A stretch of DNA of 64,000 nt from Caldilineaceae bacterium (GCA_965204025.1 OZ241972.1:4762006-4826005); one strand, 5' to 3'. Shown: positions 2,649 through 39,742, numbered from the stretch's first letter. Translations and numbers: made by a program. Notes: a model not told the origin generated them from the sequence alone.

Positions 2649-2775
2649 GGCCCGCACACAGCCCCGATCTAGGCCCGGACCCACAACTGCGATCGCGGTC
2701 CGTCGCCGGGGACACTGTCCACCGCGCTGCGTCGGACGCAATGACCTCCCCAAAACCCCCTTTCCGTTTGGACTT
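2649..2775. repeat. Copy B of the non-coding repeat flanking the degenerate IS
   Basis: Direct-orientation match to 1017-1037 and 1107-1199, with scattered substitutions. Confidence 0.7.
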
Positions 2776-2956
2776 AATCCCTTTGCGCGCGGAAGTCACC
2801 GGGACGGAACAGGCGCGACGAACCCGGAGCAGGCAGTTTGACGGCTGCTTCGACCGGCACACGCCGGCACGGATGGCACGCACCCCGTGACCCAACGAAG
2901 ACTTGGACCTGTACCACGGAGTCCTGCACAGCCGGGCCTGGCCGTCCTGACCACAG

Positions 2957-3319
2957 GTGGTCCATGTCCTGCCGCGCGGTGCCGACTCGACCGCGGTGAA
3001 AGAGGTGCTACTCAACGGCACCGGCACGAATTTGGCACCGAAACGCCTGGTCTGCCTCCACCTGGCACGCCTCCCAATCGAGTTCGTCTTGTGGGACACC
3101 CAGCAGCACCTCGACCTGCACGATGGTCAGGTCCGGGCACAGGCCCAGCTGCCCTTCCACTTCTATCGGATGTTCGCCGCCTATGTTTGGATGTCCCTGC
3201 AGGCTCGGAACCGGCCTCGGGACCGCTTTGCGCTGCACCTCATCCAGCGCCACAACCACGCGCGGGCAATGTACCAACGATTCAGAGGCCTGCTCGGCCG
3301 CGGGTCGAGACCCGCCTAA
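2957..3319 (+). CDS. hypothetical protein
   Basis: By hand count, third-codon-position GC is higher in this frame than in the overlapping minus-strand ORF 3008..3475. No motif recognised. Confidence 0.3.
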   Translation: MVHVLPRGADSTAVKEVLLNGTGTNLAPKRLVCLHLARLPIEFVLWDTQQHLDLHDGQVRAQAQLPFHFYRMFAAYVWMSLQARNRPRDRFALHLIQRHNHARAMYQRFRGLLGRGSRPA

Positions 3320-3562
3320 GCGGAGGCCGTTGACCACGGGATCCCGGCGGATCACCTGTGTCACCGGGCACCCATCTGACAATGAGGCCGCGCGGCCCCT
3401 GAATGCGGTCTCCCAACTGGTGCACCATACTGTTTCCAACCTCAAAAAACTATCCAACCCATAGCCATGCAACACCCAGATTTTGTGTTACCCTCAAGTC
3501 GGTTGAGCTCCTTCATTGGAGCAGACAAGCCTTGGGACATGCACCCACGGCGGGAGGGAACG

Positions 3563-5113
3563 ATGAAAGCGACAGTCAGCGTCAAAAACTTCGGGCCAAT
3601 TGAACACGCGGCTGTGCAATTGCGCCCATTGACCGTGTTTGTTGGACCGAGCAACACTGGCAAAACATATCTTGCAACTTTGTTTTATGCTGCCCATCGC
3701 ATTTTTAACGGATTCCCACAACTGCCGGTCATGACATATTTGTCTGACGGTCCAAATTTCCTAACATTCGGGATCTTTCGATTTGCGAATGTGGACATCA
3801 GCAACGACGATATGGCGTTCTTGACCGAATTGGGAACGGAAGAACAGGAAATACCCTACAAGAAATTGCCCCGATGTGTGCACGAGTTTGTCACCAATTC
3901 AATTAGTGGACCCCTTGCTCCTACCTTGGAGTTCGAGCTGAGCAGGTTGTTCGATGTCGAATCAATGTCGGACCTGGTCAGTGCCTATGGAGAAGCGGAC
4001 ACGGCTACAATCAGTGTGGCAGTCCACCGCGACCAAGAAGGGACGGCTACTCATTCACCACCCATACCCCTATGGATGGTTGAGACGAACATCGGTGGAT
4101 CGGAGCCGGTGACACACTTTTCGCCACCTGATGGACCTATATTCATATCATCCACATCAAGCAATAGTAAGTTCAACGACTTTCAAGCCGGTTCCAATTG
4201 GCCAGATTCAAGATACAAGAGGTACTTATTCGAAAATCTCTTGGAGCGTTTGCTTCCGAAACTCGGCAGAAACTGGGCTACTTTCCTGCCTGCTGAACGA
4301 AGCGGTATTATGCAATCGCACCTGGTAATTTCCAGTGCAATCATCGACATGGCCACGCGGGGCGGCATCCAGCGGCTACCGGATATACTGACGCTGCCGG
4401 GCACAGCTGCAGACTTTTTGTCGAACTTGCTATTGCTAAACGATCGGAAATCAATGGGAAGAGTACGTGGCGGGCGCAAGGGTGACGCTCTAGGCGATGA
4501 CATAGTGAAGCATATAGAACAGGAAGTACTCAAGGGCGATGTGAGTATCCAATATGGCAAGGAGAGTCCTAACTCTAGAATCGAGTACTCGCCGCACGAA
4601 TTGGACCTGGAGTTGCCATTGAATAGATCCTCAGCGATGGTTACGGAACTAGCACCGTTGGTCCTGTACCTCAGGGAAATGGTGCGTCCCGGCGACTTAT
4701 TGGTTATTGAGGAACCAGAATCCCACCTGCATCCTGCCGCGCAAACCCACATGGCCAGTGTGATCGCTCGAATCGTTAGAATGGGTGTACAGGTGGTTGT
4801 TACAACACATAGCGACTGGTTGATCCAGGCTTTTGGAAACTTGGTCCGTCGAGGAGAGTTGGCGGCCGACGGTGTCGATCCGTTCCCAACCGAGTCATCG
4901 AATGACAGGTTGCTGAAAAAGGAGATTGGCGTGTGGGGTTTCAATTCGAATGGCACTCGGGGTTCCATAGTGGAAGAGATCCAATTTGACTGGGATCAAG
5001 GCATTGAACCGCCGGAATACCAAAGGGTGATGGAACAACTTTACAACGACACTACCATGTTGTACAATCGACATGTTGCAGAGTCGGATGGGAGTGTATC
5101 TGATGTGGAATGA
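3563..5113 (+). CDS. ABC-type (AAA_15/AAA_21-like) ATPase
   Basis: Start MKATVSVKNFGPI is preceded by the RBS gggaggga. Walker A is FVGPSNTGKTY. The motif LPAERSG follows a long insert. Walker B/D-loop is LLVIEEPESHLHPAAQ and the H-loop is VVTTHSDWL. The region is AT-rich relative to its flanks. Confidence 0.85.
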   Translation: MKATVSVKNFGPIEHAAVQLRPLTVFVGPSNTGKTYLATLFYAAHRIFNGFPQLPVMTYLSDGPNFLTFGIFRFANVDISNDDMAFLTELGTEEQEIPYKKLPRCVHEFVTNSISGPLAPTLEFELSRLFDVESMSDLVSAYGEADTATISVAVHRDQEGTATHSPPIPLWMVETNIGGSEPVTHFSPPDGPIFISSTSSNSKFNDFQAGSNWPDSRYKRYLFENLLERLLPKLGRNWATFLPAERSGIMQSHLVISSAIIDMATRGGIQRLPDILTLPGTAADFLSNLLLLNDRKSMGRVRGGRKGDALGDDIVKHIEQEVLKGDVSIQYGKESPNSRIEYSPHELDLELPLNRSSAMVTELAPLVLYLREMVRPGDLLVIEEPESHLHPAAQTHMASVIARIVRMGVQVVVTTHSDWLIQAFGNLVRRGELAADGVDPFPTESSNDRLLKKEIGVWGFNSNGTRGSIVEEIQFDWDQGIEPPEYQRVMEQLYNDTTMLYNRHVAESDGSVSDVE

Positions 5114-5612
5114 CATTCGGAGTTCTTTGGTTTCGAAGATTGGGGCCGACAACCTATGCAGTCGGTGTCTGGATAGCGGATGCGAGATTTCCCTCGTAGA
5201 TATCTCCGAAAACAGAATCGTCGTGGATGCGGACAAGGCGATGGAACGTGGTGTCAAAGGAGCCAAGAAGTGCGACTGTGTCTTGTTCGTTCAGGGTGAT
5301 TCTCATAAAGTATTGATGACGCTCCCGATCGAGTTGAAGAGCGGTTCCATGAGTATTAATCCAGTGCTTCAACAACTGGCAGCGGGAGCCAGGTACGCAG
5401 AGGCTGTTGTTCGGTTCATCCCTATGGTAGGCAGCCTTGATGTTCGTTGTCTTCCGGTTTTGGCGCACAACGGTGGACTAACCATGAGGCATACGCAAAG
5501 ATTGCATAGAATGGGTCCGTGCATCCAATTCAGAAAAAAGAAATGGAGAGTGGGAACCGTTAGATGTGAAGTTGAAGGTGATGTCGCTCGTCTGATCGCG
5601 ACTCTGGGGTAA
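5103..5612 (+). CDS. small PD-(D/E)XK-like protein (putative nuclease partner)
   Basis: The start overlaps the ATPase stop by 11 nt; an alternative ATG lies at 5088. Motif: D58 (KKCDCVLFV) followed 18 residues later by E77-L-K79 (PIELKSG). It shares the low GC of the ATPase gene. Confidence 0.6.
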   Translation: MWNDIRSSLVSKIGADNLCSRCLDSGCEISLVDISENRIVVDADKAMERGVKGAKKCDCVLFVQGDSHKVLMTLPIELKSGSMSINPVLQQLAAGARYAEAVVRFIPMVGSLDVRCLPVLAHNGGLTMRHTQRLHRMGPCIQFRKKKWRVGTVRCEVEGDVARLIATLG

Positions 5613-5616
5613 CTGT

Positions 5617-6687
5617 TCAGCAACTGTATTGAAAGTCAAGCGTTGGAGACAACCGGCACAGTGTCCGGTTACCCGTCGGTTTGCAGCGTGCAAGTGTGCC
5701 AATGGCCCGCACTGACGGCAATGAAGGTCCCGGGCGGGGGCGTAGCCTGCCCAAATTCGTTGTAGCCCCAGCAGTAAGCGGTGCCATCGGTCCGCAACGC
5801 GCAGATGTGGAAATCGCCGGTGCTGAGGGTCGGGGACGGGAAACAGGTGCCACGGCTGACAGGATTGGTATCTCCGGATCCTGTATGTCGGCCGGCAGAC
5901 AGAGCTCCGTGCCAGCTGTCAGGGGTGCGTCAGGAGCAATGCCGTTGAGGGCCGCCGTCGCGGCCAGGTCCAGGCCCAACCAGTCGGTGATCTGCTGCAA
6001 ACGCGTCTCGTTGGGGTTGACGGTGTGGCGCTGTACACAGTCGGCGGGAACGGTCGGAGCCGCAACACTCAGGGCTTCGGGTTCCGGCTGCGCAACCGGC
6101 TCCGGCGTGGGAACCGTGACTGCCGGTTGCGCTTCGACCTCAAGCTCGACGGCAACGGCGGCGACTTCGGCCAACGTCTGCACAGTGGTGTCGTCGATGT
6201 CGGTCAGGGAACCGAAGATCCACACGAGTTTGCCGACCGCCACGGGGTGCAGGAGCTGCAGCCAACTGCCGTCCGCATCGCGGCCGGTGATACGCACCTG
6301 ATCGCCTGCATGTACATGGCCGGCCGTCGGATGGTCGGTGCCAGGTCCAACGCGCAGGTTGACGAGCGACCCGGTTACGGTTGCGACCACGTACTCGGAA
6401 GCCGCGGTTTCGGACTCCGGCGTGGGTGCGACGGTCTCCGGAGTGGGCTCCGGCGCAGGCTCGGCCGCGGTCGACTCCGGGAACGCAGCCTCGGGCATCT
6501 CTGCCATCCTCTCCGCCACCGTCGGCTCGGTGTGCACAGGCGCTTCGTCTTCGGCGGCCGACATGATGCAGCTGCCGAGCAGCAGCCCCAAGACGAGGAC
6601 AGGGGCCAGGTGCGCAACAGGACGCAGGGATGGAACATGGCGCTGTGGGTGGACTGGGTGTCGATAATGAACGCGGGTGCACAGCAT
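5617..6687 (-). CDS. secreted or lipoprotein with SH3b and LysM domains
   Basis: Signal sequence with lipobox LLLGSC. SH3b-like segment ATVTGSLVNLRVGPGTDHPTAGHVHAGDQVRITGRDADGSWLQL. LysM-like segment HTVNPNETRLQQITDWLGLDLAATAALNGIAPDAPLTAGTELCLP. The C-terminal tail is of uncertain validity. Confidence 0.65.
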   Translation of the reverse strand: MLCTRVHYRHPVHPQRHVPSLRPVAHLAPVLVLGLLLGSCIMSAAEDEAPVHTEPTVAERMAEMPEAAFPESTAAEPAPEPTPETVAPTPESETAASEYVVATVTGSLVNLRVGPGTDHPTAGHVHAGDQVRITGRDADGSWLQLLHPVAVGKLVWIFGSLTDIDDTTVQTLAEVAAVAVELEVEAQPAVTVPTPEPVAQPEPEALSVAAPTVPADCVQRHTVNPNETRLQQITDWLGLDLAATAALNGIAPDAPLTAGTELCLPADIQDPEIPILSAVAPVSRPRPSAPAISTSARCGPMAPLTAGATTNLGRLRPRPGPSLPSVRAIGTLARCKPTGNRTLCRLSPTLDFQYSC

Positions 6688-6936
6688 GCCATCCGCATCG
6701 AATCACAGCCCAAGGCACGCTTCCAAGCCGGGGGCCCTCTAAAGCTTCAGTGCCGCACAGTATGGACAATACAAAGGCCGCAGAGACGCGCGGTGGCCCC
6801 GGCAATCCAGTTTCCCGCAGTACAGACAGTACCGCGCGCCCGGCACCACGTGGGCTTTCGGCCCTATGCGACAGTGAGGGCAGAGCGAACCGTCACTTGT
6901 GGGTTGACGACCGTGCGGCCCACGCGCGCCACCCAC

Positions 6937-7470
6937 ATGAATCGGATCAAGCCGTCGCATGATTTTCGTGCGCTTGGCTGGATCGTCGCGTGGTCCTATC
7001 CGGAAGGCGTGCCAGTGTGCGCGCCGCCAGTGGGGGCGCGGGCTCTGCCGCGTTGTCCCTGGCAGAGGTTCGTCTACGGGCAGGCCGACGAAGTTCGGGT
7101 GGGGGTGGCAGGGCCTCCGCCCGTCGCCTTGGCGGCCTGCGTCTACCTCGACACCGAGACGACCGGCCTGGAGCCCGGCTACGACGAAATCGTCGATCTG
7201 GCGATCGCCACCGCGGACGGCACCTTTCGGCTGCGGCTGCGCCCGCTCTCGCCGCCGCTCGACCCGGAGACCGAGCTTCTCGCCTCCCGCAGCCAACTGC
7301 GGCGCCTGGGTTGGCGGGACGCGGAGATCGCGTCCCTGAAGCCCGCGTCCGAGGACTACAACCAGGTGCGCCACATCTGGTATCCACTTTACCGGGTGGC
7401 GCGCCGGCATCCACACCGGACCGCAAGTCTGCGGTCCTCACGGCAGGCATTGGCAGTGCCGCCGCGTTGA
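6937..7470 (+). pseudogene. DEDD (DnaQ-like) 3-5 exonuclease fragment
   Basis: A clear Exo I motif is present: ACVYLDTETTGLEPGYDEIVDLAIA. I could not find Exo II or Exo III motifs downstream. Confidence 0.4.
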
Positions 7471-7589
7471 TGTGCGCGCGACCTGCGCTGGGGGGCTTCC
7501 CCTTGTTTCAACTGGCCTGTGATCGTTGACGCACCGTCGTGTATGCTTGGCATCCGATGGGCAAGTGTTCCTGTCGCCGCCAATCGACC

Positions 7590-8696
7590 ATGCGCCTCCG
7601 TCCGCCCCCCCGAACCCTATCGTCCGCGGGTTGAACCGCGCATTGCGGCCGGCCCGCATGCGGGGGAGCGCACGCCGGTCGGGGAACGCCTGTCGGCGAC
7701 GTTGCTCACGGGGACGCGGAAGCTGGTCCACGACGGACTGGACCGGCTGCAGCGGCAATGGGATTCCCTGCCGCGCATCAAGGTCCGGCTTTTGCGCGAG
7801 GGTCGGGACCTGGATCGGGAACTGCAAGCTCCGGATCCCAAAATCATCGGCCGGTTGACGGCGCGCGGTTGCGACTGGTACATCGAGGTCTGCCTGTTGC
7901 GCAGCTCCCGCGCGAACGGGCGCAACCCCAATGCGCGGCAAACGGCCAAGCTTGCGGACATCAGGGAGGAACTTGTGGGCACCGGACACACGCCGCCGCC
8001 CGGTGGTCGGCCGCCAGGGGAGTTGCCTCCCAATGCCGAACCGCCGAACCGCCGGACAATCGGCAATTGGCCAACGTTGTGCTGAAGCTCACCAACGTGA
8101 TGGAAGAGATGGTCGAAAGCCAAAACACGGTGATTGAGCGCCTGGGACGGATCGATGGTCGCATGGGCGACGCCGCGGGGCGCGCCTACGAGGATCAATT
8201 CCGGGCGTATTTCATCGACCAGGCCCACATGGCGATCAGCCAACTCTCCCTGCCCCGGCCCGGGGAGACAAGCCTGCGGTGGTCGGACCGACACCGCGGC
8301 GGCTGGGCGAAAGTGGCAGCCGAATTGGGATTCGAGCCCTGGGAGAACCCCAGGGCGCGGTACTGCGATTTCATTTACCGGCTGCGCTGGCCGGACACGC
8401 GGCTGCCCGACCTGTACATCGTGGGCGAGTCCGGCATCCAAGTGCATGCCGAACTTCTCGACAAGGCTACGGAATTGCACGCGCAAATCGAGGCGAAGGG
8501 CAGAGCGGTGCGGACGCTGCTGGTCGGAGCCGGCTTTAGCGACCGGATGCAGGATCTGGGCGGTGCCGAAGCGGTGGCGGCGCGCGGCCTGGTGTGGGTG
8601 GAGCGGCCCGAGGATCTGGAGTCCGACGGCTGGCAGGACGTGTCGGAAATCGGTCAGGTGCTCAAGGCTTGGCTGACAGAGCAAGGCGCACTCTGA
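7590..8696 (+). pseudogene. coiled-coil plus PD-(D/E)XK-like family, member a (two disruptions)
   Basis: Removing one C from the C7 run at 7605-7611 gives MRLRPPPEPYRPRVEPRI, parallel to MFLKPPREPTIRI of member b. Removing one copy of the 8-bp duplication at 8035-8050 joins ORF 7519..8085 to ORF 7758..8696 in frame. The C-terminal motif is CDFIYRLRW..LYIVGESGIQVHAELLDKA. Confidence 0.6.
8035..8050 (+). repeat. 8-bp tandem duplication gccgaacc x2 that frameshifts member a
   Basis: Read directly from the sequence. Deleting one unit restores NAEPPDNRQLANVVLKLTNVMEEM in frame. Confidence 0.8.
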
Positions 8697-8990: not shown

Positions 8991-9849
8991 CTACACTCCG
9001 TTGCGCCAGCCGTCCTCCTTGCGGTACACGTAGTCGGGGTCCTCGGGGCCCAAAACCCGCAGCCTTTCCTCCACGGGAAAGTCGGTCATCGCCATCCGGA
9101 TCGACTTGCGCGACATGCCCGCAAAAAAAAATTGACCAGCACCGACAGGCTGCCCGCGTCCGCCTGTTGCATGCCATGCAGGTAGGCGTCGCGGTCCTGC
9201 CGCTGGACCAGGAGCGGCAGCCAGCCGTTGCGGATCAGGTGCCAGTTCAACAACACGCGGCCCGTGCGCCCGTTGCCGTCCGCAAAGGGATGGACCTGGA
9301 TGAAACGATGGTGCATCCAGGCCCCCGTCAGCAACGGATGGCGGTTCGCCTCGTAGTCCGCGTACAACTCCAGCAGGATGTCCAGTTGGGGATCCACCTG
9401 CTCGGGCGGCGCGTAGAGATGCTTCGTGCCATCGGGGCGCGTCGGGTTGTTGGGAAAGTCCTTCCACACCCCGCGCCGCAGCGGACGCTGCACGGGCCGG
9501 CCCAGCATGTCGACCGCGTTGTGGGTCTCCTGGTGGGCGGTGATCTGATGCCCGCCGGCGCACCGTCCCCGCGGGTGGCGTCCGCCGGTTCGAATCCGAT
9601 CTCGTCGCGCAGGCGCTGCGCGGATTCAATAATCGGTTGCGCCTGCCGCAGGGCCGCGGTGACGGCTTCCATGCGCGAACCGCCCCGTCCCAGCACAAGA
9701 TCGTCGGTTGCCATGCCTGCGGGCACGTACAGGCGCGCGTTCTTCAACACGGCCGTCCAGCGGCCGTTGTTGTCCTGCACGACCTCGACGGCCGGTGCGG
9801 CCGCGCCGGGGCTCGGGGGTCTCATCACCGGCTCTCGGATGTACCTCAC
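8991..9849 (-). pseudogene. Fic/DOC family protein, two frameshifts
   Basis: Fic motif HPFADGNGRTGRVLLN lies in ORF 9086..9508. The N-terminal part is in ORF 9328..9849. The C-terminal part (AGMSRKSIRMAMTDFPVEERL...) is in a third frame, beyond the A9 run at 9123-9131. Confidence 0.7.
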
Positions 9850-10594: not shown

Positions 10595-12093
10595 GTTTGG
10601 TATCCTAGTAGTGCAACGAAACTTCATAGTGCCGGAACAGGTACGCGCAGTACCGTCGCCGGCGTTGGGCATGGGCGCGGCGCGCGGCCGCGTTGCGGGC
10701 CCGGCGGTAGTCCACGATGGCGCAGGCGCGGTCGGTCGGGGAGCCGGTGCGGGGCAGGGCCGCATCCACCAGCAGGCAGGTCTGGGGCACGGTCAGGCCG
10801 GGGGCTTTTTTTTGAGCCGCAGCATCTCCCGCACCACGAAGAAATGGGCCAGCATGACGAGCGTGGCGTGGCGGTGCCAGCCCTGCCAGCTGCGGCCCTC
10901 GTAGTCGCCCAGCCCGAAGAGCTGCTTGCCGTCGCGGAAGCACTGCTCGATGGGCCAGCGCAGGCCGGCCAGCCACACCAGCCGCTCCGCGGGCATGTCC
11001 GCGGGGCCGTTGCAGAGGTAGCACTTGAGTTCGTCGGTGGCGGGGTTGCGGCGCAGCAGCAGCCAGACGTCGGGACCGGGTTCGGGGCCGCGCCGGGCCA
11101 CCACGCGCAGGACCGCGCCGAGGATGGCCTGGGGCCCCTTGGACCCGTCCCGCAGGACGAAGGGCCGCCAGGCCGCGGGCGGCAGTTGGTCGGCCACGGC
11201 GCCGACCTCCTGCGAGGGGGCCGAGAAGAGCGGGCGCGAGGGGGAGCCGCCCGTCTCCGGACGCGCGGTCCAGACCTGGGTGTTGCGGGGCACCTCGGCC
11301 AGGTAGCCCAGTCCCAGGGCGGCCACGCCGTCGAGGAAGGCGTGGCTGCAGCCGAAGCCCTCGTCGCAGGTCACCCAGCGCACCGGCAGCGAACCCTCCG
11401 CCACCAGGGCGGTCAGCATGTCCAGGGCCAGCTGCGGCTTGGTGCGGAAGGGCAGGTCCGCCGGCACCCCGGTGCGCCGCCGCCGCTGCGCATGGCTCTC
11501 GCCCGAGACCCAGGCCTGGGACAGATACAGCCGCCGGTCCACCAGGGCCGCCGCCCCGCGCCCCAGGTAGGCCGCGAAGACCGCCGCCTGGCAGTTGGCC
11601 CGCTTGCCCAGCTGGCCGCAGTACTGCCGCGCCACCCCCACCGACTCGGTCCCGTCCTTGGGCATGTCGGTGCCGTCCACCGCCAGCACCCCCTCGTCCT
11701 CGCCCAGGGTCGCCGCCACCAGCTCCCGGTGCGCGGCCAGGAGGGGGGCGTCGTCCCAGCGTGCCTTGCGCAGGAACAGCTGCTGCGTGCGCACCGCATT
11801 GGGGTCGGCCCCGCGCAGGCGCAGGACCATGCGCTCGATCGACTTGCGCGGCTCGTCGCTGAGCAGCCCCTGCAGGTAGGCGTGCAGGTGGCCCTGCAGT
11901 TCGCGGCGCCCGAAGAAGGGCGCATAGCGCGCCTGGTAGGCCCGCAGCCGCCGGCGCACCGACGCGATGTCGGCGCGGCGCAGGGACACGTCGGGCAGGG
12001 AGACGGAGGCGGCGGCCGGGGACATGGCAGGGCCTGGGCTGAGGGAATCCGAACACCGCGATTCTACCTTTCAAAGGTTCGTTGCACTACTAG
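10595..12093 (-). mobile_element. IS701-family insertion sequence
   Basis: 16-bp terminal inverted repeats: ctagtagtgcaacgaa at 10595-10610 and ttcgttgcactactag at 12078-12093. They enclose a DDE transposase gene. Confidence 0.8.
10605..12025 (-). CDS. IS701-family DDE transposase (frame change at the T8 run 10806-10813)
   Basis: 410 aa are in one frame, ending ...WHRHATLVMLAHFFVVREMLRLKKK. The expected tail APGLTVPQ...IVDYRRARNAAARRAH continues in the frame of ORF 10605..12074. Confidence 0.8.
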
Positions 12094-14864: not shown

Positions 14865-16493
14865 ATGCGTCCCTGCGGGTACAATCCCGCCATGCGCGTT
14901 GAGTCCCCCGCACACCACCCGGTGATCGCAGACCCTGCCGCACTGTCCGCACGCGTGCTGGCCTTCATGCGCGCGCCGGAGCCCGTCGACCAGCTTTTCC
15001 GCCTGCAGGACCTGGCGGACCTGGGCGCGCCCGACCGCGTGCGGTCGGCGCTCCGAACCCTGCAACGCGCGCATCTGGTCGGCTCCCCCGCGCCCGATCT
15101 CTGGTTCCCGCTGGTCCGCCAGGTCCGCGACCACGCCGCGGACCGCTTTGTGCCGCCCGCCTACATGCGCCACATGGCCGTGCGGCTGCTGGCGCGCATG
15201 GGCGTGCGCGAGGTGCGGAGCATGGCGGATCGCGAAACGGCCAAGGCCGCACAGTGGCTGGCAGAGCACGGCGGCCAGGCCCACCCGGAGACCGACACGC
15301 CCGACAGTGCGCCGCCGGTCGGCGTGTGGGGCGTGGCGGAGGATCGCGTGATCGGGGTGGACCGCCCCGTGGCCCTGCACCTGCGCTGGGCCAACCGCGA
15401 ATACTTTACGGAATACAAGGATGTGTTCCTGGACCGGCCCCTGGGCGACGTTGCAACTCCGTTCTCAGTCCTGGACGCGGCGGCGTTCCGCACCGCCGCC
15501 CATGCGGCGCAGATCAACCCGATTCGGCTGGAGAAGGATCTCAAGGTCAACCATGTCCTGCATCTACTGCAGGACTGGCGGCCGCCGGGGTGCGACACGG
15601 CCCTGACGGGCGGCACCGCCCTGGCCAAGGGCTACCGGGCCATTACGCGCTTTTCGGAGGACGTCGACCTGCACATATACCCCGAGGAGCCGGGCCCCGT
15701 GTCGCTGGCAACCAAGCAGGCCGTGTGGGACAGTTTCCTGGCCTGTCTGGAGACTCGGGTCGTACCCGTCGTGGACGGCGGTGCCGTCGACCTGCGGGAG
15801 ACCCGCTTCCTCTTCGGGCGCGACGGTCAGGGCCGGTTCGTCCAGCACGCATCCCTGGCGTACGCGTCCCGCTTCGCGGAGGATCTGGGCGATGCGGATC
15901 GCCCCCTGACGGCCCCGGACCGGCGCCATGCCGACCGGCCGTGGGCCGTGCGCTTCGACCTGACCTTCCGCCCACCCCACGAACGCCCGCCGCTCCGGAC
16001 CCAACCCCTGCTGGCCCTGCCGAACGTGCTGGAGTTCCCCGAGGCGGTGGTGGCCGATGCCTGGCCCTGCGTCGCACCCGAGCACATCGCCATTGGCAAG
16101 CTCGACAACCTGCACGGCTTCCTGCATGGCCGCCGCATCAGCGGCAACCTGCGCGGCGGCCCGCCCGTATCGGTCATGCGTCACGTGCAGGACCTGGCGG
16201 AACTGCGCATTCTCCTGTTGGTCCCCGCCCTGGCGGACACGATTGCGCGGGCCATGCCCGCCGCCAAGCGGTCCGAACTGCGGACCGGCTTGGCCGCGTG
16301 GGAAGCGGACTCCGAAAAGCGGGGCTGTTTCGCCGAGTACAGCAAGCTGATGCGCCCCCACCAGGATCCGGCCATGGTGCCGATGTTCGACCAGACACTG
16401 CGCGACCTGCAAGATATGTTGTCCGCATGGAGCGTGGTGGACGGGCGGGAGCCCGCGCCCGTGGACCGGGGCCGCAGGGGAGGCCAGTTCTAG
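14865..16493 (+). CDS. AbiEi-like N-terminal domain fused to an AbiEii-type nucleotidyltransferase
   Basis: The N-terminus (FRLQDLADLGAPDRVRSALRTLQRAHLV) resembles the AbiEi antitoxin wHTH. The NTase core is ALTGGTALAKGYRAITRFSEDVDLHI. Paralogue at 24435-25340. Confidence 0.7.
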   Translation: MRPCGYNPAMRVESPAHHPVIADPAALSARVLAFMRAPEPVDQLFRLQDLADLGAPDRVRSALRTLQRAHLVGSPAPDLWFPLVRQVRDHAADRFVPPAYMRHMAVRLLARMGVREVRSMADRETAKAAQWLAEHGGQAHPETDTPDSAPPVGVWGVAEDRVIGVDRPVALHLRWANREYFTEYKDVFLDRPLGDVATPFSVLDAAAFRTAAHAAQINPIRLEKDLKVNHVLHLLQDWRPPGCDTALTGGTALAKGYRAITRFSEDVDLHIYPEEPGPVSLATKQAVWDSFLACLETRVVPVVDGGAVDLRETRFLFGRDGQGRFVQHASLAYASRFAEDLGDADRPLTAPDRRHADRPWAVRFDLTFRPPHERPPLRTQPLLALPNVLEFPEAVVADAWPCVAPEHIAIGKLDNLHGFLHGRRISGNLRGGPPVSVMRHVQDLAELRILLLVPALADTIARAMPAAKRSELRTGLAAWEADSEKRGCFAEYSKLMRPHQDPAMVPMFDQTLRDLQDMLSAWSVVDGREPAPVDRGRRGGQF

Positions 16494-17954: not shown

Positions 17955-19532
17955 TCAGCCGACGGTTCCGTCGTCATACCGGTCAGGGGTTGTGATTGTA
18001 CCGCCGGGACCCGCGGCCGCAGTGTAGGCGGGCAACGGGTTTAAAGGAAGGAGTGAAGGATCAGCAACACCAAAGCGAAGGCACCGATCATCAGCAACGT
18101 TTGCAACAACCCGGTACCCTGTTCGGCAGGAAAAGGTGTGGGCGTGTCGGCCTCCTGGGACTGCCAGCGACGAATCGTGCGCGGCTTCCTCGCCGAGCCA
18201 CTTCGTTGCGCATGAAGCCCTCGACCGTGGACGCCCCGAGGTTGTCCACGAACGGGAGCGGGGACTGTCCGTTGGCCATTGCTTCAGACCGTGAGCGGAA
18301 GGGCAGCGGCGGATTTCAGGTCTCGATCGAGCTTGGGGCCGGGGCCGGGCGTTCAACGCTGGCGGCGTGCGCGCCATGCGGCCCGCGCACGCGACACCAG
18401 ATGCACCACCGTCACCCACACCAACCCCACGTACAGGCCGGCCACCACCAGGCCGCCAATCAGCGCCGCCGACAGCAGGGTCCAGAAAAGGACATGCTGC
18501 ACGGACGGCGCGAGGAGGAACGCAGGCTGCACCCTGGCGGCAAGGATTGCGCCCCCCCACCACCAGCAACGCCCACAAACCCGTGTAGTTGACCAGACCC
18601 ATAGCGACCCCTTGGCTGTCCGAGGTGTCTTCCTGCACGAGCAGGCCGTACAGGGTGACGGGTTGCGCATGGCGGTCCGCACGGTTTCGGGGTGGCGGCA
18701 CGGTCAGGGGCCGCCAACGCAGGCCGACACGCGCCTGACGCGCCGCGCGGGCTTTGCGCGCGGACTGCCGGCGGGTGCTGGCCCGGGCCGACTGGCGGGG
18801 CACGGTCAGGGTCCGCCGGGCCTGCGCCGCCCCCCGGGCCAAGGTGGCCCAGAGCCGGGGCTGGGCCGGGCCCAGCGACCGGTCGTGTTGGGAACGCACC
18901 AGCAGGTCGTAGGTCCCCTGGTCCTGCTGGTGCCGAAACAGCGTGAAGATGTCCCCTTCCCGATCCATGACGGCGACCAGCCGCACTCCCTCCAGCTCCG
19001 CGGCCAAGGCCGCACAGGCCTTCAGGCCCTCCTGCCAACGGGCCGTCCGGCTCCCGGAGTGCGTGTCGTACTGGATGTGGGGCACGCCCAGCGGCACCCC
19101 CTGGGCATCCAGCACCAGCAGGGAGTGCATGTGCAGGCCCAGTGTGCCTTCCGACGCCCGATTCCGACCGATCAAGCCCAGGCCCGCACAGCCGGGATGA
19201 TCCGCGAAGTTGAGGGCGGTCCCGTCCTGTACGCAGAGCACCCGTCCGGCCTGCTGCATGCGCTGCAGGGTGCGCGCCCGGTGGGGGGGCAGGATCCGGT
19301 CGGGCGTCACCTGCGTGTCGTCCGGCCGGTCCATCAGGCGGTAGTAGCCCTTGACCAGGGCCCGGTCGGACTGCGCCGCACCGGGAAAGGAGGCCTGGGG
19401 CGCCTGGACCCGGGCACAGCGCACCAGCCGCCGGCTCAGACGCACATCCCCCAACGGGGCGTCCCCCAGTTCCTGCTCCGCCCAGCGCGCGCTATCCAGA
19501 CCCGCACCGGAGGCCAGAGGTCGGGGTGCCAT
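17955..19532 (-). pseudogene. IS4-family (Tn5-like) transposase, C-terminal half disrupted
   Basis: The N-terminus WAEQELGDAPLGDVRLSRRLVRCA is Tn5-type. The DDE region runs through VAVMDREGDIF. After about residue 300 the sequence stops looking like a transposase. The IS ends were not identified. Confidence 0.6.
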
Positions 19533-22577: not shown

Positions 22578-24332
22578 ATGCGCACACTGCCGGCCCTGCA
22601 CTCCACCGATGCGGACTTTGCGGCCATTCGCCGCTGGGAGGGCTTCTACGTGGACAAGACCGGTTTGTTCCGCCATCTTCTGGAGACGGATCCAAGCCCC
22701 CTGTCCAATCCACCGCTGACCACGCGCCACCAGTTCCTGGCGCGTCCGCGGCGGTTTGGCAAGACGCTGCTGGTCAACACGCTGGAGGCCTGGTTCCAGG
22801 GGTTGCCGCCGGGCCATCACACCAATCCCGAAGGCGACACCGCGCAACTGGTCGGCCTGCCCGCGGGCTGGACTTCGCCGCCGTGGCTGTGGGCGGGTCT
22901 GGATGCCGAGGACTGGCACGGAACGCATGGGTGGCACCCCGTGATCCGGCTCAATTTGGCCCGGGCCTCGGCTCCCACCCCCGCCGAAACCCGCAACGCC
23001 CTGCAAGCCTACCTGTGGGATGTGATCGGGGAGTGGTATGACCGCGGCGCGCCTTGGACCGTGTCCGATCTCTTCGGTCCATTCCCCGACCAGCCCCCGG
23101 GCATCATGCTGACAGCCCTGATCGACGGCCTGGAGCAAGCCTACGGCCGCCAGCCCGTGGTGCTGGTCGACGAGTACGACACACCCCTTGTCAACCACAT
23201 CGGGACCGACCGCCCTCTCGAACCCGCCGTTGACGAACTCCGCGAATTCATCCGCGTGCTGAAGGACGACGAGGGCCTGCTCTACGGCGTGTTCGTGACC
23301 GGCATCACGCGCTTTGCGCGCCGCCACCTTTTCTCCGGCGCCAACAACTTCGTCGACATCTCCGACGACCCCCGCTACGGCGCGCTGTGCGGCTTCACCG
23401 AAGAGGAGGTGAACCGGGATCTGGCCCCCTACCGGACGGCCCTGGCGGATAGGGAACCGCGCTTGGATCCCCTTGCCATTCAGACCGCGTGGCGGGAGCA
23501 GTACAGCGGCTACCGCTTCTCGGAGATGCCCTCGACGCCCCGCGTCTACAACCCCTTTACCCTGATCCGCGGCTTGGAACAAACACTTAACAATGAACAT
23601 CTCCGCGATTTGGCCGTCCAGGGACGTTGGCCCTCCGCCTGGAGTGAGTCCGGTCACCCGGGTCTCATTGCACGCCTGGCCGCGGACGGGCGCAGGGCGC
23701 CGCCGTCCCCGGGTCTCACAGACCTGAACCGCCCCGATCCCATCCTCCTCATGCTGGAGACCGGCTATTACACATGGCGCGGTGCGGCCGGCGAGCCCGC
23801 CCATCTCGACTTTCCCAACCGCGAAGTCGCCGAATCATGGACCTACGACATCCTGGGGCTGGGCGAACTCGCCCCCGAACGGGACGGCCGCGTGTTCACC
23901 GAACTGCACACGCACTTGGAGCGGGGCGACGTGCCGGGTTTTGCCGCGCGCCTGGAAACCTGCGTGTTCGGTTTCGCCCACGAAAACCTGCAGACCGAGT
24001 CCAACTTTCGCGTGCTGATGCAGGCCCTGTTCCGGCAGATGGCCGTGCCCACACAGTCGGAGCCGTCGAACTGGGGCGGGCGCGCCGACCACGAGGTCCG
24101 AATCGGAGACCGGGTGTACGTCTTCGAAGTCAAGTACAACCGGCCCGCCGACGCGGCCCTGCGCCAAATCGGGGACCGGGGCTACGGTCGCCAACACCTG
24201 GACACCGGCCGCACGGTGACGGCCGTTGGTCTGGCCTTCCGCCGCGACCTGTCGACGGGCCCGTGCGTGCAGGTCGCACAGGCCGACCTGGCCCGGTTGC
24301 TGGCTGTCGACACAGAATCCGTCCCGCGCTAA
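22578..24332 (+). CDS. AAA-ATPase-like / PDDEXK_9 family protein, paralogue 1 (intact)
   Basis: N-terminus FYVDKTGLF...ARPRRFGKTLLVNTLEAWF. Central VVLVDEYDTPL. C-terminus ADHEVRIGDRVYVFEVKYN, a PD-(D/E)XK motif. Confidence 0.85.
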   Translation: MRTLPALHSTDADFAAIRRWEGFYVDKTGLFRHLLETDPSPLSNPPLTTRHQFLARPRRFGKTLLVNTLEAWFQGLPPGHHTNPEGDTAQLVGLPAGWTSPPWLWAGLDAEDWHGTHGWHPVIRLNLARASAPTPAETRNALQAYLWDVIGEWYDRGAPWTVSDLFGPFPDQPPGIMLTALIDGLEQAYGRQPVVLVDEYDTPLVNHIGTDRPLEPAVDELREFIRVLKDDEGLLYGVFVTGITRFARRHLFSGANNFVDISDDPRYGALCGFTEEEVNRDLAPYRTALADREPRLDPLAIQTAWREQYSGYRFSEMPSTPRVYNPFTLIRGLEQTLNNEHLRDLAVQGRWPSAWSESGHPGLIARLAADGRRAPPSPGLTDLNRPDPILLMLETGYYTWRGAAGEPAHLDFPNREVAESWTYDILGLGELAPERDGRVFTELHTHLERGDVPGFAARLETCVFGFAHENLQTESNFRVLMQALFRQMAVPTQSEPSNWGGRADHEVRIGDRVYVFEVKYNRPADAALRQIGDRGYGRQHLDTGRTVTAVGLAFRRDLSTGPCVQVAQADLARLLAVDTESVPR

Positions 24333-37900: not shown

Positions 37901-39742
37901 TCAATACGGCCACGAAGTTCCTCCAGGCAACGGACTTCCCTCAGCCAGAATTGGTTCCCACACTTCCTTGGATGCATCCCTGTCGGCGCGCAACTCCTTA
38001 CGTGCGGCTGCGATGTGCAACGCTCCTCCCTCATTTTTTCGCCAGAGATACAACGCAAGCCGAGTGACCCGGTCGTGGGTGGACACAAAACGGCGCCCGT
38101 AGTCCCGGGCGTCGGCCTGTTGGTGTGCTGCCCCCGTTCGCACATGATCCTCGCCATACTTCATCTCGACGGCGCAAGCATGATCCGGATTCAAGATGGC
38201 AAAGTCCGGCCGCCCTCCGCCCTCATGCAACTCGACGGTGTAGTTCAAACCCAGAAAACTGCACAGGGCCTGAAACAGGAGATGCAGGCTTGTCTCGCTG
38301 CGCAGCTTCTCGCTCGGGAATTCGTGAAACCATGGGACCAAGGGCACGAGCAGTCCTTGGAAGTCCATGGAGATCATGGACTCCTTGAGGCGTCGGAAGG
38401 CAACGGGATGCCCGGCTTCCCCATACTCCCGCTCCAACTCCTGCAGAAAGGCCTGCTCCACCTCTCGGGTGGGATAGGTCGCGTACGGCGACTCGCCGTT
38501 GCCGGCCGGCTTGACGGTCAGGTAACCGGTTTGCAACAGCAGATGGCCCAGCTCCGTCTCCTCACTGATGGCATCGTGACTCAGCCGGCGTTCCCGTTCC
38601 AGAACCCCCACCAGTGAAGCGGGACTCCTGCGCAGGCTTGTGGCCAGGCGACGGGCCGAACCGGATTCGACCCAGGGGCTGGGCCATCCATCTGCCTTGA
38701 CATCCTCGGCACCTGTTTCGGTCTCCAGCAGTTTCAGCGCCGTGACCAGGGACCAAGGGTTGTAGACGGCCGGTCCGCGCCCCCGCAAGTCAAAGTGATA
38801 GCCGTTGTAGTACTCCCGCAACTGTCGGCGCAGTTCGACCTCGGATATCCCCAGCACGCGCGCGCCAGCCGCCGCGTGGCGTCCCAGGCCACGCTCCCGG
38901 CTCTCGAGATCCAAGTCGCTAAAGCCACACACCAACGCGAACCTGGAATCCCACGTCAGATCCTCGGCGTTGTTGAGACCGGACAGAAGATGGTTGTAGG
39001 CCTTGCGGGTGATGCCGGTCATGATGACCTTGTGCAGGCTGCCGGATTCGCGCTTGAAGCGACGCAGGAAACCGCGCAAGGGCCCCAGATTGACATCGGT
39101 CAATGCCCCGGCGTCGCGCAGGGCCATCAGCGGAGTGTCGAACTCGTCCACCAGGATCACCGGCGCGGATTTCGAGCCCTCGTTCAGGGCCGCAATCAGG
39201 CGGCTCAGCAGGTCACCGGGACTTTCGGGACATTCCGCTTCCCCGTCAAGCCAGGCATGGGGCATCCCCGTGGCCTTGCCCCGAGCGCGCCAGAGGCGCC
39301 CCTGTGCCAACACCATGCTCACCAGTTGCACGGTCAACTCGTCCCGACTGGCCGCCTCGATGTCGCCCATATCCAACCGCAGCACCGGATGCCAATCGTT
39401 GTCCGTGGGATCGCGCTCGCCCCAAGCGGTGCCCTCAAATAGCACGTCGTAATCCACCTGTGCTTGACCTGGTGCCGGCAGATGTCCCTGATACATGCAC
39501 TCGATGGTCGATAGCATGAGGGTCTTGCCGAACCGACGGGGGCGGCCCACAAAGAGGTAGTGTGCCGGGTGGGCAAGCAGACGTGCTATCTCGGCCGTCT
39601 TGTCAACATAGGCTTCCCCTTGGCTCCGCAACTGCGCGAATTCCGAAGTCCCTGTCGCCAACGCAGACAAGGCTCCGTGGCACGAACCCGATTCTGGTTG
39701 GCACTGACTCGCCACTGCCTCACACTTCCCGATCATCGGCAT
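37901..39742 (-). CDS. AAA-ATPase-like / PDDEXK_9 family protein, paralogue 3 (intact)
   Basis: AYVDKTAEIARLL...GRPRRFGKTLMLSTIECMY. Central VILVDEFDTPL. C-terminus GGRPDFAILNPDHACAVEMKYG. Confidence 0.85.
   Translation of the reverse strand: MPMIGKCEAVASQCQPESGSCHGALSALATGTSEFAQLRSQGEAYVDKTAEIARLLAHPAHYLFVGRPRRFGKTLMLSTIECMYQGHLPAPGQAQVDYDVLFEGTAWGERDPTDNDWHPVLRLDMGDIEAASRDELTVQLVSMVLAQGRLWRARGKATGMPHAWLDGEAECPESPGDLLSRLIAALNEGSKSAPVILVDEFDTPLMALRDAGALTDVNLGPLRGFLRRFKRESGSLHKVIMTGITRKAYNHLLSGLNNAEDLTWDSRFALVCGFSDLDLESRERGLGRHAAAGARVLGISEVELRRQLREYYNGYHFDLRGRGPAVYNPWSLVTALKLLETETGAEDVKADGWPSPWVESGSARRLATSLRRSPASLVGVLERERRLSHDAISEETELGHLLLQTGYLTVKPAGNGESPYATYPTREVEQAFLQELEREYGEAGHPVAFRRLKESMISMDFQGLLVPLVPWFHEFPSEKLRSETSLHLLFQALCSFLGLNYTVELHEGGGRPDFAILNPDHACAVEMKYGEDHVRTGAAHQQADARDYGRRFVSTHDRVTRLALYLWRKNEGGALHIAAARKELRADRDASKEVWEPILAEGSPLPGGTSWPY

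Follow-up and report, generated by a model that had tools for sequence, protein, structure and literature searches.

Background

A survey of ABC ATPases from 2020 reportedly contains an operon type designated 'OLD-ABC ATPase + novel REase' (restriction endonuclease), and the present work concerns a pair of genes of this general kind, here called gene 1 and gene 2, within a stretch of 64,000 nucleotides from a Caldilineaceae bacterium (hereafter the window, from whose first letter all coordinates are counted). The closest described systems are WonAB and PD-T4-4. WonAB, from the WASA-1 prophage of Vibrio cholerae, consists of an OLD-type ABC ATPase and a variant PD-(D/E)xK nuclease (Adams et al., Nat Microbiol 2025; PMC12137116). 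According to that paper, both genes are needed for defence, which is lost in the WonA mutants K34A, R182A, E300A and H333A and in WonB K71A; WonB is predicted to bind WonA's dimerized C-terminal extensions and is lost upon inactivation of the ATPase; bulk DNA degradation does not occur in the protected cells; and the system, which resembles PD-T4-4, is grouped with the 'OLD-ABC ATPase + novel REase' operon, which occurs in 0.96% of bacterial genomes (PMC12137116). PD-T4-4, reported from E. coli ECOR58 by Vassallo et al. (2022), protects against phage (PMC9519451), is classed as a PD-(D/E)XK nuclease with a P-loop NTPase, and forms higher-order complexes (10.1101/2025.07.10.664194).

A first-pass annotation, made from the sequence of the window, had singled out the two genes as a low-GC island that encodes a sensor ATPase and a minimal nuclease, in a combination that it took to be undescribed. 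The profile comparisons given below indicate that the pair belongs to a large, unannotated sister clade of WonAB, PD-T4-4 and the PADLOC system PDC-M47; the clade is not covered by a Pfam family, and the sources searched give it no name. We consider it likely that the cassette formed by the two genes is a horizontally acquired two-protein module directed against phages (or against mobile elements), composed of an OLD-type ABC ATPase and a small nuclease with a REase fold.

Results

Gene 1 encodes an OLD-type ABC ATPase

The longest open reading frame (ORF) of gene 1 runs from 3467 to 5113, and its start was placed at the ATG at 3563 (MKATVSV), because the homologues begin there and because the motif GGGAGGG is found 4 nt upstream. 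The protein scored well above the Pfam cut-offs for AAA_15 (8.6e-25, 88.6 bits, cut-off 32.1) and AAA_21 (6.6e-13, 49.8 bits, cut-off 27), more than 3217 homologues were recovered at E ≤ 1e-10 (hundreds of them full-length, with 37-41% identity), and the nearest solved sequence was that of the OLD nuclease 6p74. An AlphaFold2 (AF2) model built from 72 homologues (predicted template modelling score, pTM, 0.80) had PtuA (in Septu and retron complexes), Rad50, SMC heads and OLD as its top Foldseek neighbours, at probability 1.0. On the basis of the Pfam, 6p74 and Foldseek matches, gene 1 was therefore assigned to the ABC ATPases, and within these to the OLD-like branch. The head fold carries a Walker A motif, a motif at the position of the Q-loop, a signature, a Walker B motif with D-loop, and an H-loop, in the order that is typical of the ABC superfamily. 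The features are listed below, with the conservation of the residues in the same 72 homologues given between brackets.

3563-5113, + strand: gene 1, OLD-type ABC ATPase of 516 aa, proposed sensor and regulator (from Pfam, PADLOC and fold)
3644-3667, + strand: Walker A GPSNTGKT with K34, from motif and conservation (G28, P29, S30, N31, G33, K34 and T35 100%, T32 95%)
3700-4507, + strand: clade-specific ATPase inserts, approximately residues 47-315 (~270 aa), broken by the LPAERSG strand
4286-4306, + strand: LPAERSG at the Q-loop position, with R246, from motif and conservation (L242, P243, A244, R246 and G248 100%)
4628-4648, + strand: diverged ABC signature SSAMVTE, clade consensus ASSMVSE, from position and conservation (S357, M359, V360 and E362 100%)
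4697-4735, + strand: Walker B and D-loop LLVIEEPESHLHP with E383/E384, of the EEPExHLHP type, from motif and conservation (E384, P385, E386, H388, L389, H390 and P391 100%)
4799-4816, + strand: H-loop VTTHSD with H416, from motif and conservation (T414, T415, H416 and S417 100%)
4820-5110, + strand: C-terminal ATPase extension, proposed docking surface for the nuclease (hhalign to WonA extends through residue 500)

In the secondary structure of the AF2 model, Insert 1 forms an alpha/beta domain and Insert 2 is made up of helices. No match was found over these inserts (residues ~45-315) in the PD-T4-4_A and PDC-M47A models, nor in the hhalign comparisons with WonA and PD-T4-4_A; we propose that they form the trigger-sensing region. 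As a separate observation, residues 359-507 of gene 1, the C-terminal extension included, are matched (E 0.003) by chain B of PDB entry 22bu ('AAA family ATPase', 551 aa), which may represent a newly solved relative.

Gene 2 encodes a small protein with the motifs of a PD-(D/E)xK nuclease

Gene 2 has no match in Pfam or NCBIfam and no name in its source. When gene 2 alone served as the query, a word-seeded protein search recovered 3 relatives and gave a false impression of rarity, which was overturned by an exhaustive HMMER profile search: this found 886 clusters (at the 50% identity level) with E ≤ 1e-3, of which 351 had E ≤ 1e-10, and nearly all family members have 150-170 aa. Conservation was determined from an alignment of 114 relatives, whose overall identity is 22-50%, and is given between brackets for the features that follow.

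5103-5612, + strand: gene 2, divergent PD-(D/E)xK / REase-fold protein of 169 aa, proposed nuclease effector, with a Shine-Dalgarno (SD) sequence GGGAG 8 nt upstream of its ATG
5271-5276, + strand: C57-D58, the predicted first catalytic acidic residue and the adjoining conserved Cys, at the start of core strand 2 (C57 98%, D58 98%)
5331-5339, + strand: E77-L-K79, predicted catalytic (D/E)xK motif, at the end of core strand 3 (E77 invariant, 100%; K79 98%)
5373-5375, + strand: Q91, on the helix that follows the ExK strand (96%)
5166-5183, 5271-5273 and 5565-5567, + strand: conserved cysteines C22, C27, C57 and C155 (C27 99%, C57 98%, C155 96%, C22 72%)

The AF2 model of gene 2 (predicted local distance difference test, pLDDT, 92.5; pTM 0.90) contains strands at 38-42, 59-64 (directly preceded by D58) and 70-79 (ending with E77-L-K79), a helix at 85-103 (with Q91) and one or more strands at 113-122. 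The order alpha-beta-beta-beta-alpha-beta, the acidic residue at strand 2 and the ExK motif in strand 3 are those of the PD-(D/E)xK core. In sequence-based searches of the 114 members, nothing exceeded the Pfam thresholds and the only sub-threshold matches were to HSDR_N and NA-iREase3; a search of the PDB sequences with the gene 2 profile gave chance matches, such as myosin heavy chain kinase; and no HNH or Toprim match was found in Pfam, PADLOC or NCBIfam. Position 17, an Asn in the protein of the window, is a Cys in 56% of the relatives. The conserved cysteines, including the one beside the predicted catalytic Asp, suggest a structural Zn or Fe-S site; the accessible part of the paper on WonAB (PMC12137116) holds no mention of conserved cysteines in the nuclease.

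A renewed reading of the sequence bore out the coordinates, the gene overlap and the motifs as they had been given in the first-pass annotation. The split ABC-type layout and the AAA_15/AAA_21 affiliation that it had expected of gene 1 agree with the Pfam thresholds, the motifs and the Foldseek results, and its D58 ... E77-L-K79 motif in a PD-(D/E)XK-like context was found to be 98-100% conserved and to fit the strand order of the AF2 model.

The two genes are linked in all loci examined and form a mobile unit

Gene 1 and gene 2 homologues were found paired in the same order in 16 of 16 loci, reached from either gene: three loci were obtained from relatives of gene 1 (ATPase identity 80%, 50% and 41%), nine were GTDB genomes returned by a genome scan with an alignment of 15 gene 2 sequences, and four were obtained from distant gene 2 relatives that are only 22-27% identical. 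The linkage of gene 2 homologues to ABC ATPases, which the first-pass annotation had named as a test of its proposal, is thus found in every locus examined. The stop of the first gene and the start of the second overlap by 8 nt in L008-L010, by 4 nt in L013 and L019-L021 and by 1 nt in L006, and are separated by a gap of 2 nt in L022. At the locus with the 80%-identical ATPase (L001), an antisense ORF of 213 aa (7379-8020, - strand) had been annotated instead of the gene 2 homologue (7541-8053, + strand), and the gene 2 family is therefore probably under-represented in the protein databases. The host taxa comprise Poribacteria, Latescibacterota, Roseovarius, metagenome-assembled genomes (MAGs) of Alpha- and Gammaproteobacteria, and Candidatus Synechococcus spongiarum, and are mostly marine and sponge-associated MAGs.

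The cassette (3466-5612) has a GC content of 50.3%, versus 65.1 ± 3.3% for segments of equal length elsewhere (z = -4.5), and constitutes the lowest-GC stretch of the 64-kb window, a block of ~2.1 kb. The GC content at third codon positions (GC3) is 0.55 for gene 1 and 0.53 for gene 2, versus 0.70-0.96 for the neighbouring genes. The dip that had been noted by eye is hence present over both genes, but it amounts to about 47-53% instead of the 40-55% given at the time.

The DNA that is shared with other genomes delimits the unit: window 3466-5607 only is common with L001, which has an unrelated context, 3218-5625 with L018, which offers a second context, and 2775-7128 with L017, a syntenic strain variant. 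The mobile unit therefore consists of the two genes and a leader of ~100 bp. The cassette is horizontally acquired. It has no transposase or recombinase of its own and is not flanked by terminal or boundary repeats; copies of it adjoin insertion sequence (IS) elements and resolvases, and IS-mediated movement is plausible. When compared with the L001 copy (84% DNA identity), both genes are under purifying selection, with ratios of non-synonymous to synonymous substitution (dN/dS) of 0.27 for gene 1 and 0.39 for gene 2. Window 3218-5625 and L018 6169-8538 are 96% identical, with gene 1 at 99.2% and gene 2 at only 95.3%; the differences become denser toward the 3' end, where 200 nt of gene 2 hold 7-12 of them against 0-2 in the same length of gene 1, and the dN/dS of gene 2 in this comparison is 0.7. 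This pattern points to either a recombination mosaic or a faster evolution of the nuclease.

The pair is homologous to WonAB, PD-T4-4 and PDC-M47 and distinct from each

For the nuclease, six WonB/Novel REase sequences listed in PMC12137116 (Supplementary Tables 4 and 5) served as the comparison set. The gene 2 family aligned to this set with a probability of 93.2% (hhalign, E 3e-7) over the CD..ELK..Q core, of the form CD...(V/I)ELK(G)...Q, and the ATPase family aligned to WonA with 95.9% over residues 315-500, the C-terminal extension included. The adjacency that characterizes the operon, an OLD-type ATPase next to a small REase-fold protein with CD...ELK...Q, is found here as well, and both share the order A-then-B, with the OLD-type ATPase followed by a REase-fold protein of ~140-170 aa. 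The four WonA residues required for defence, K34, R182, E300 and H333, correspond to K34, R246, E384 and H416 of gene 1, all of which are 100% conserved, and WonB K71 corresponds to K79 of gene 2 (98%), the ELK motifs being aligned. By motif, PASRS of WonA lines up with LPAERSG, and in the profile alignment IEEPEAHIFP of WonA falls on the Walker B/D-loop LLVIEEPESHLHP and TTHSP on the H-loop VTTHSD; in the WonB/Novel REase set, the CD is invariant, as is a Q at the position aligned to Q91.

The pair also differs from WonAB. WonA has ~340-400 aa, judging from the two complete sequences in the table of the paper, versus ~516-530 aa in the present clade; its inserts are unrelated to those of gene 1, with no alignment before residue 315; its signature reads SSGQQ, versus SSMVSE in this clade; WonB has ELKG where the gene 2 clade has ELKSG; and gene 2 possesses additional N- and C-terminal strands and the conserved Cys 22, 27 and 155. 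The motifs ELKSG, QLQAG and GPSNTGKT did not occur in the portion searched of the homologue tables of PMC12137116 (Supplementary Tables 4 and 5), and neither OOV36003 nor the taxa of this clade were found in the accessible part of the supplementary tables on WonAB. Two matches in Vibrio phages (H4 and H5), which had been considered as comparators for WonAB, proved to be Menshen (NsnABC).

In the PADLOC models, gene 1 matched best to PD-T4-4_A (PDLC04033, 5.3e-34) and then to PDC-M47A (7.7e-31), in both cases partially, and the same two systems were best for both genes in five further pairs. When collections of phages and plasmids were searched by tblastn with gene 1, no close relatives were returned, but the search provided the reference pairs for PD-T4-4 (L004 and L005), one from an E. 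coli plasmid and one from a Vibrio phage. These reference pairs score 301-862 bits for the A protein, over its full length, and 63-357 bits for B, whereas five complete pairs of the clade reach 111-130 bits on PD-T4-4_A, spread over two partial stretches, and do not exceed 18 bits on PD-T4-4_B. The proteins of the window gave 116 bits for A, again in two partial stretches, and 13 bits for B, which does not attain the level of a PD-T4-4 member. The profiles of the ATPase family and PD-T4-4_A aligned with 99% over residues 349-463; those of the gene 2 family and PD-T4-4_B of the Vibrio phage aligned with 79% (E 1.5e-5) over a CD...xK...QL core, and the alignment with PD-T4-4_B of E. coli reached a probability of only 15%. 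The gene order and the near-abutting genes are the same as in PD-T4-4; PD-T4-4_B differs in having 209 aa and D/Q-x-K instead of E-L-K.

For PDC-M47, the window likewise remained below the level of a member (A 105 bits, partial; B E 0.035), and the clade ATPases match the PDC-M47A profile in their N- and C-terminal parts only. A PADLOC scan of the 114 gene 2 relatives yielded 60 matches to PDC-M47B at E ≤ 0.01 (best 4.7e-10) and 7 to PD-T4-4_B; the B proteins of the relatives score 18-27 bits on PDC-M47B, over ~80 of 186 profile positions. These matches pass the threshold and are partial, so they point to homology with PDC-M47 and not to clear membership. The name PDC-M47, a 'phage defence candidate' of PADLOC-DB v2, was not found in the literature searched, and we infer that it belongs to the set of 145 candidates published by Payne et al.

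Septu, PARIS, Gabija and OLD share with this pair the principle of a nuclease under the control of an OLD/AAA_15/AAA_21-type ABC ATPase; PtuA (Septu) is the top structural neighbour of gene 1, and AriA (PARIS) is a strong PADLOC match (3.5e-26). They differ in the effector, which is an HNH protein (PtuB) or a Toprim protein or domain (AriB, GajA, OLD) versus D...ExK in gene 2, and in their inserts and oligomeric scaffolds. The HNH or Toprim partner that defines Septu, PARIS and Gabija is thus not what gene 2 provides.

The matches in Pfam and PADLOC, the predicted structures, the comparisons of profiles and the strictly conserved linkage of the genes support the logic of a sensor ATPase combined with a minimal PD-(D/E)xK-like nuclease, as had been proposed in the first-pass annotation. 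The pairing itself is, however, already represented by PD-T4-4 (2022), WonAB (2025), the 'OLD-ABC ATPase + Novel REase' operon and PDC-M47 of PADLOC, and is partly characterized; the claim of novelty therefore fails. The annotation had counted a call as an already named system among the outcomes that would refute it, and this applies only half-way: the proteins are homologous to PD-T4-4, WonAB and PDC-M47, but their scores lie far below those of true members, so the pair is best viewed as a divergent sister clade.

Leader and gene junction

The remaining elements of the cassette lie upstream of gene 1 and at the junction of the two genes.

3466-3562, + strand: conserved upstream leader, containing the palindrome and the SD sequence of gene 1
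3507-3522, in the leader: perfect, small palindrome GCTCC-N6-GGAGC, ~40 nt upstream of gene 1
3552-3558, + strand: SD sequence GGGAGGG of gene 1, separated by 4 nt from its ATG (3563)
5090-5113, + strand: translational-coupling junction, with SD GGGAG at 5090-5094, the ATG of gene 2 at 5103 and the stop TGA of gene 1 at 5111-5113

The leader starts where the DNA similarity to the L001 copy begins and presumably comprises the promoter and the 5' untranslated region (UTR). The palindrome and the SD region were preserved in all four aligned loci, the L001 copy included, and this short element could be an operator or a hairpin in the 5' UTR. An Rfam scan of the window was empty. At the junction, the ATG of gene 2 lies within the last codons of gene 1 (...GAT GTG GAA TGA), which results in an overlap of 11 nt with the stop of gene 1 included.

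Genomic neighbourhoods

Several relatives of the pair reside among defence genes. In L020 (1-8474) a distant relative of the pair is located directly between a DUF1156/N6_N4 methyltransferase and a SNF2-family helicase, with a SMODS/DncV-like cyclase adjoining, and is therefore embedded in an apparent DISARM- or BREX-like locus that has a CBASS system next to it. McrBC is found near the pair in L017, and GmrSD together with a Schlafen-like gene in L021; in L019 the pair is located among toxin-antitoxin genes of the VapBC type. A weakly matching DDE_Tnp_1_6 gene in L018 overlaps the stretch that it shares with the window immediately upstream of the cassette.

In the window, the following genes were observed around the cassette.

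1430-2549, - strand: split transposase ORF pair
2957-3319, + strand: transposase gene or fragment, upstream of the cassette
9086-9508, - strand: Fic/DOC-family ORF (Pfam Fic 1.8e-16, HPFADGNGR), ~3.5 kb downstream of the cassette
10793-12025, - strand: intact DDE_5 transposase (GC3 0.96)
14865-16493, + strand: ORF of 542 aa with an AbiEii nucleotidyltransferase toxin domain (9.5e-10)
17955-19532, - strand: ORF with a transposase DNA-binding domain
22578-24332, + strand: AAA-ATPase_like gene, also with a PDDEXK_9 domain
37901-39742, - strand: AAA-ATPase_like gene

The AbiEii-domain ORF may belong to a type IV toxin-antitoxin or Abi system that shares this accessory region with the cassette. The AAA-ATPase_like genes, of which the window has at least two, belong to a repeated gene family that is possibly mobile: blastn revealed paralogous DNA at ~22.5-24.4 kb and ~35.4-36.5 kb, and a further copy beside the cassette relative in L001.

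Discussion

A proposed mechanism

Following what is known for other ABC ATPases, gene 1 would form an ATP-dependent head-to-head dimer, whose clade-specific inserts would survey the cell for an infection cue. Binding and hydrolysis of ATP at the composite sites (K34, R246, E384, H416) would then control the nuclease encoded by gene 2. Translational coupling would keep gene 2 in a fixed ratio to gene 1, and by analogy with WonAB the gene 2 protein is probably docked on the C-terminal extension of gene 1. Once licensed, the predicted metal-dependent site formed by D58, E77 and K79 would cut nucleic acid, DNA or RNA, and phage development would stop. If the clade defends its hosts as WonAB does, the outcome would probably be a late, lysis-independent abortive infection and not bulk degradation of DNA.

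A number of observations weigh against this interpretation. The only PADLOC matches of gene 2 itself are weak (PD-T4-4_B E 0.015, PDC-M47B E 0.035), and the experimentally tested relatives have no more in common with the pair than the core of the ATPase, including its C-terminal half, and ~67 nuclease columns. The AF2 model of gene 2 has no significant Foldseek neighbour (best E 0.024, HamA, in the PDB and 0.002 in BFVD, TM ~0.3), and the assignment of the REase fold therefore rests on the motifs, the strand order and the homology; the weak matches are enriched in PD-(D/E)xK enzymes (HamA, the Avs3 nuclease, Bse634I, SgrAI, EcoO109I, the cap-snatching endonucleases of bunyaviruses and UL24/UL76 of herpesviruses). 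The signature of the clade has diverged (SSMVSE), so ATP-driven dimerization could differ from that of other ABC ATPases. In the locus with the 50%-identical ATPase (L002), the gene 2 homologue is frameshifted (ORFs 6415-6780 and 6753-7043 within 6415-7043), and the split marks it as a pseudogene or else stems from an error in the assembly. Finally, a promoter scan of the leader found no sigma-70 consensus above chance, and a terminator scan stayed at chance level, with none detected.

Other explanations of the cassette

The cassette could alternatively be a selfish addiction module of the toxin-antitoxin kind that stabilizes the mobile DNA by which it is carried, with the nuclease as toxin and the ATPase as its restrainer instead of a dedicated phage sensor. 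Such a role would be in line with a minimal cassette of 2.1 kb that turns up in differing contexts beside IS elements and resolvases, with the tight and usually overlapping arrangement of the two genes, with the position of L019 among VapBC-type pairs, and with the loss of WonB when WonA is inactivated (PMC12137116), which suggests that the stability of the nuclease is controlled by its partner. We nevertheless regard it as unlikely, as the large, conserved, clade-specific insert would be superfluous in a simple antitoxin, the cassette carries neither a transposase or recombinase of its own nor terminal repeats, and the homologous systems WonAB and PD-T4-4 protect against phage (PMC12137116, PMC9519451). 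Roles in addiction and in defence are compatible and do not exclude each other.

The question whether gene 2 is catalytic at all bears on a further explanation, in which it serves as a REase-fold adaptor or DNA-binding subunit without activity, and the pair acts through ATP-dependent binding or clamping of DNA or through another effector. Inactive REase domains are known from conflict systems, one member of the family weakly matches NA-iREase3, gene 2 has no significant structural or Pfam match to an active nuclease, and bulk DNA degradation is absent in WonAB-protected cells. The D...ExK triad and the Q are however 96-100% conserved across the 114 relatives in spite of their low identity (22-50%), and mutation of the equivalent lysine (K71A) in WonB abolishes defence (PMC12137116), which makes a non-catalytic role quite improbable. 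A housekeeping module for DNA repair or recombination, analogous to Rad50-Mre11 or SbcCD, has in its favour that Foldseek matches gene 1 as strongly to Rad50 and SMC heads as to PtuA. We consider this highly improbable, given the patchy distribution and variable contexts of the pair, a GC content that is foreign to the host, the apparent pseudogene copy in one genome, the lack in gene 1 of a coiled-coil insert of SMC/Rad50 length, and a sequence that is nearest to the OLD-family and defence ATPases. Each of these three explanations is less likely than a defence module in which an ATPase controls a nuclease.

Conclusion

To a specialist the architecture of the pair is unsurprising, and no new principle of defence is added by it. 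The results do show that the WonAB/PD-T4-4 class extends beyond what the present detection models recognize, and profiles derived from this clade would improve the annotation of defence genes in marine and symbiont metagenomes. Placed beside WonA and PD-T4-4_A, the insert of the clade offers a comparison for how one ATPase scaffold is retuned to different phage cues, and the conserved cysteines raise the question of metal dependence in these small nucleases. A more speculative idea, to which we attach limited credence, is that the clade constitutes a distinct ABC-ATPase/REase branch, in which the insert of ~270 residues would be a new sensor domain for a cue other than those of WonAB and PD-T4-4, and in which three or four cysteines of the nuclease, including the one beside the catalytic Asp, would form a metal (Zn/Fe-S) site that gates or stabilizes its activity. 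If true, this distinct branch would comprise at least 886 clusters (50% identity) and would apparently be common in marine and sponge-associated bacteria.

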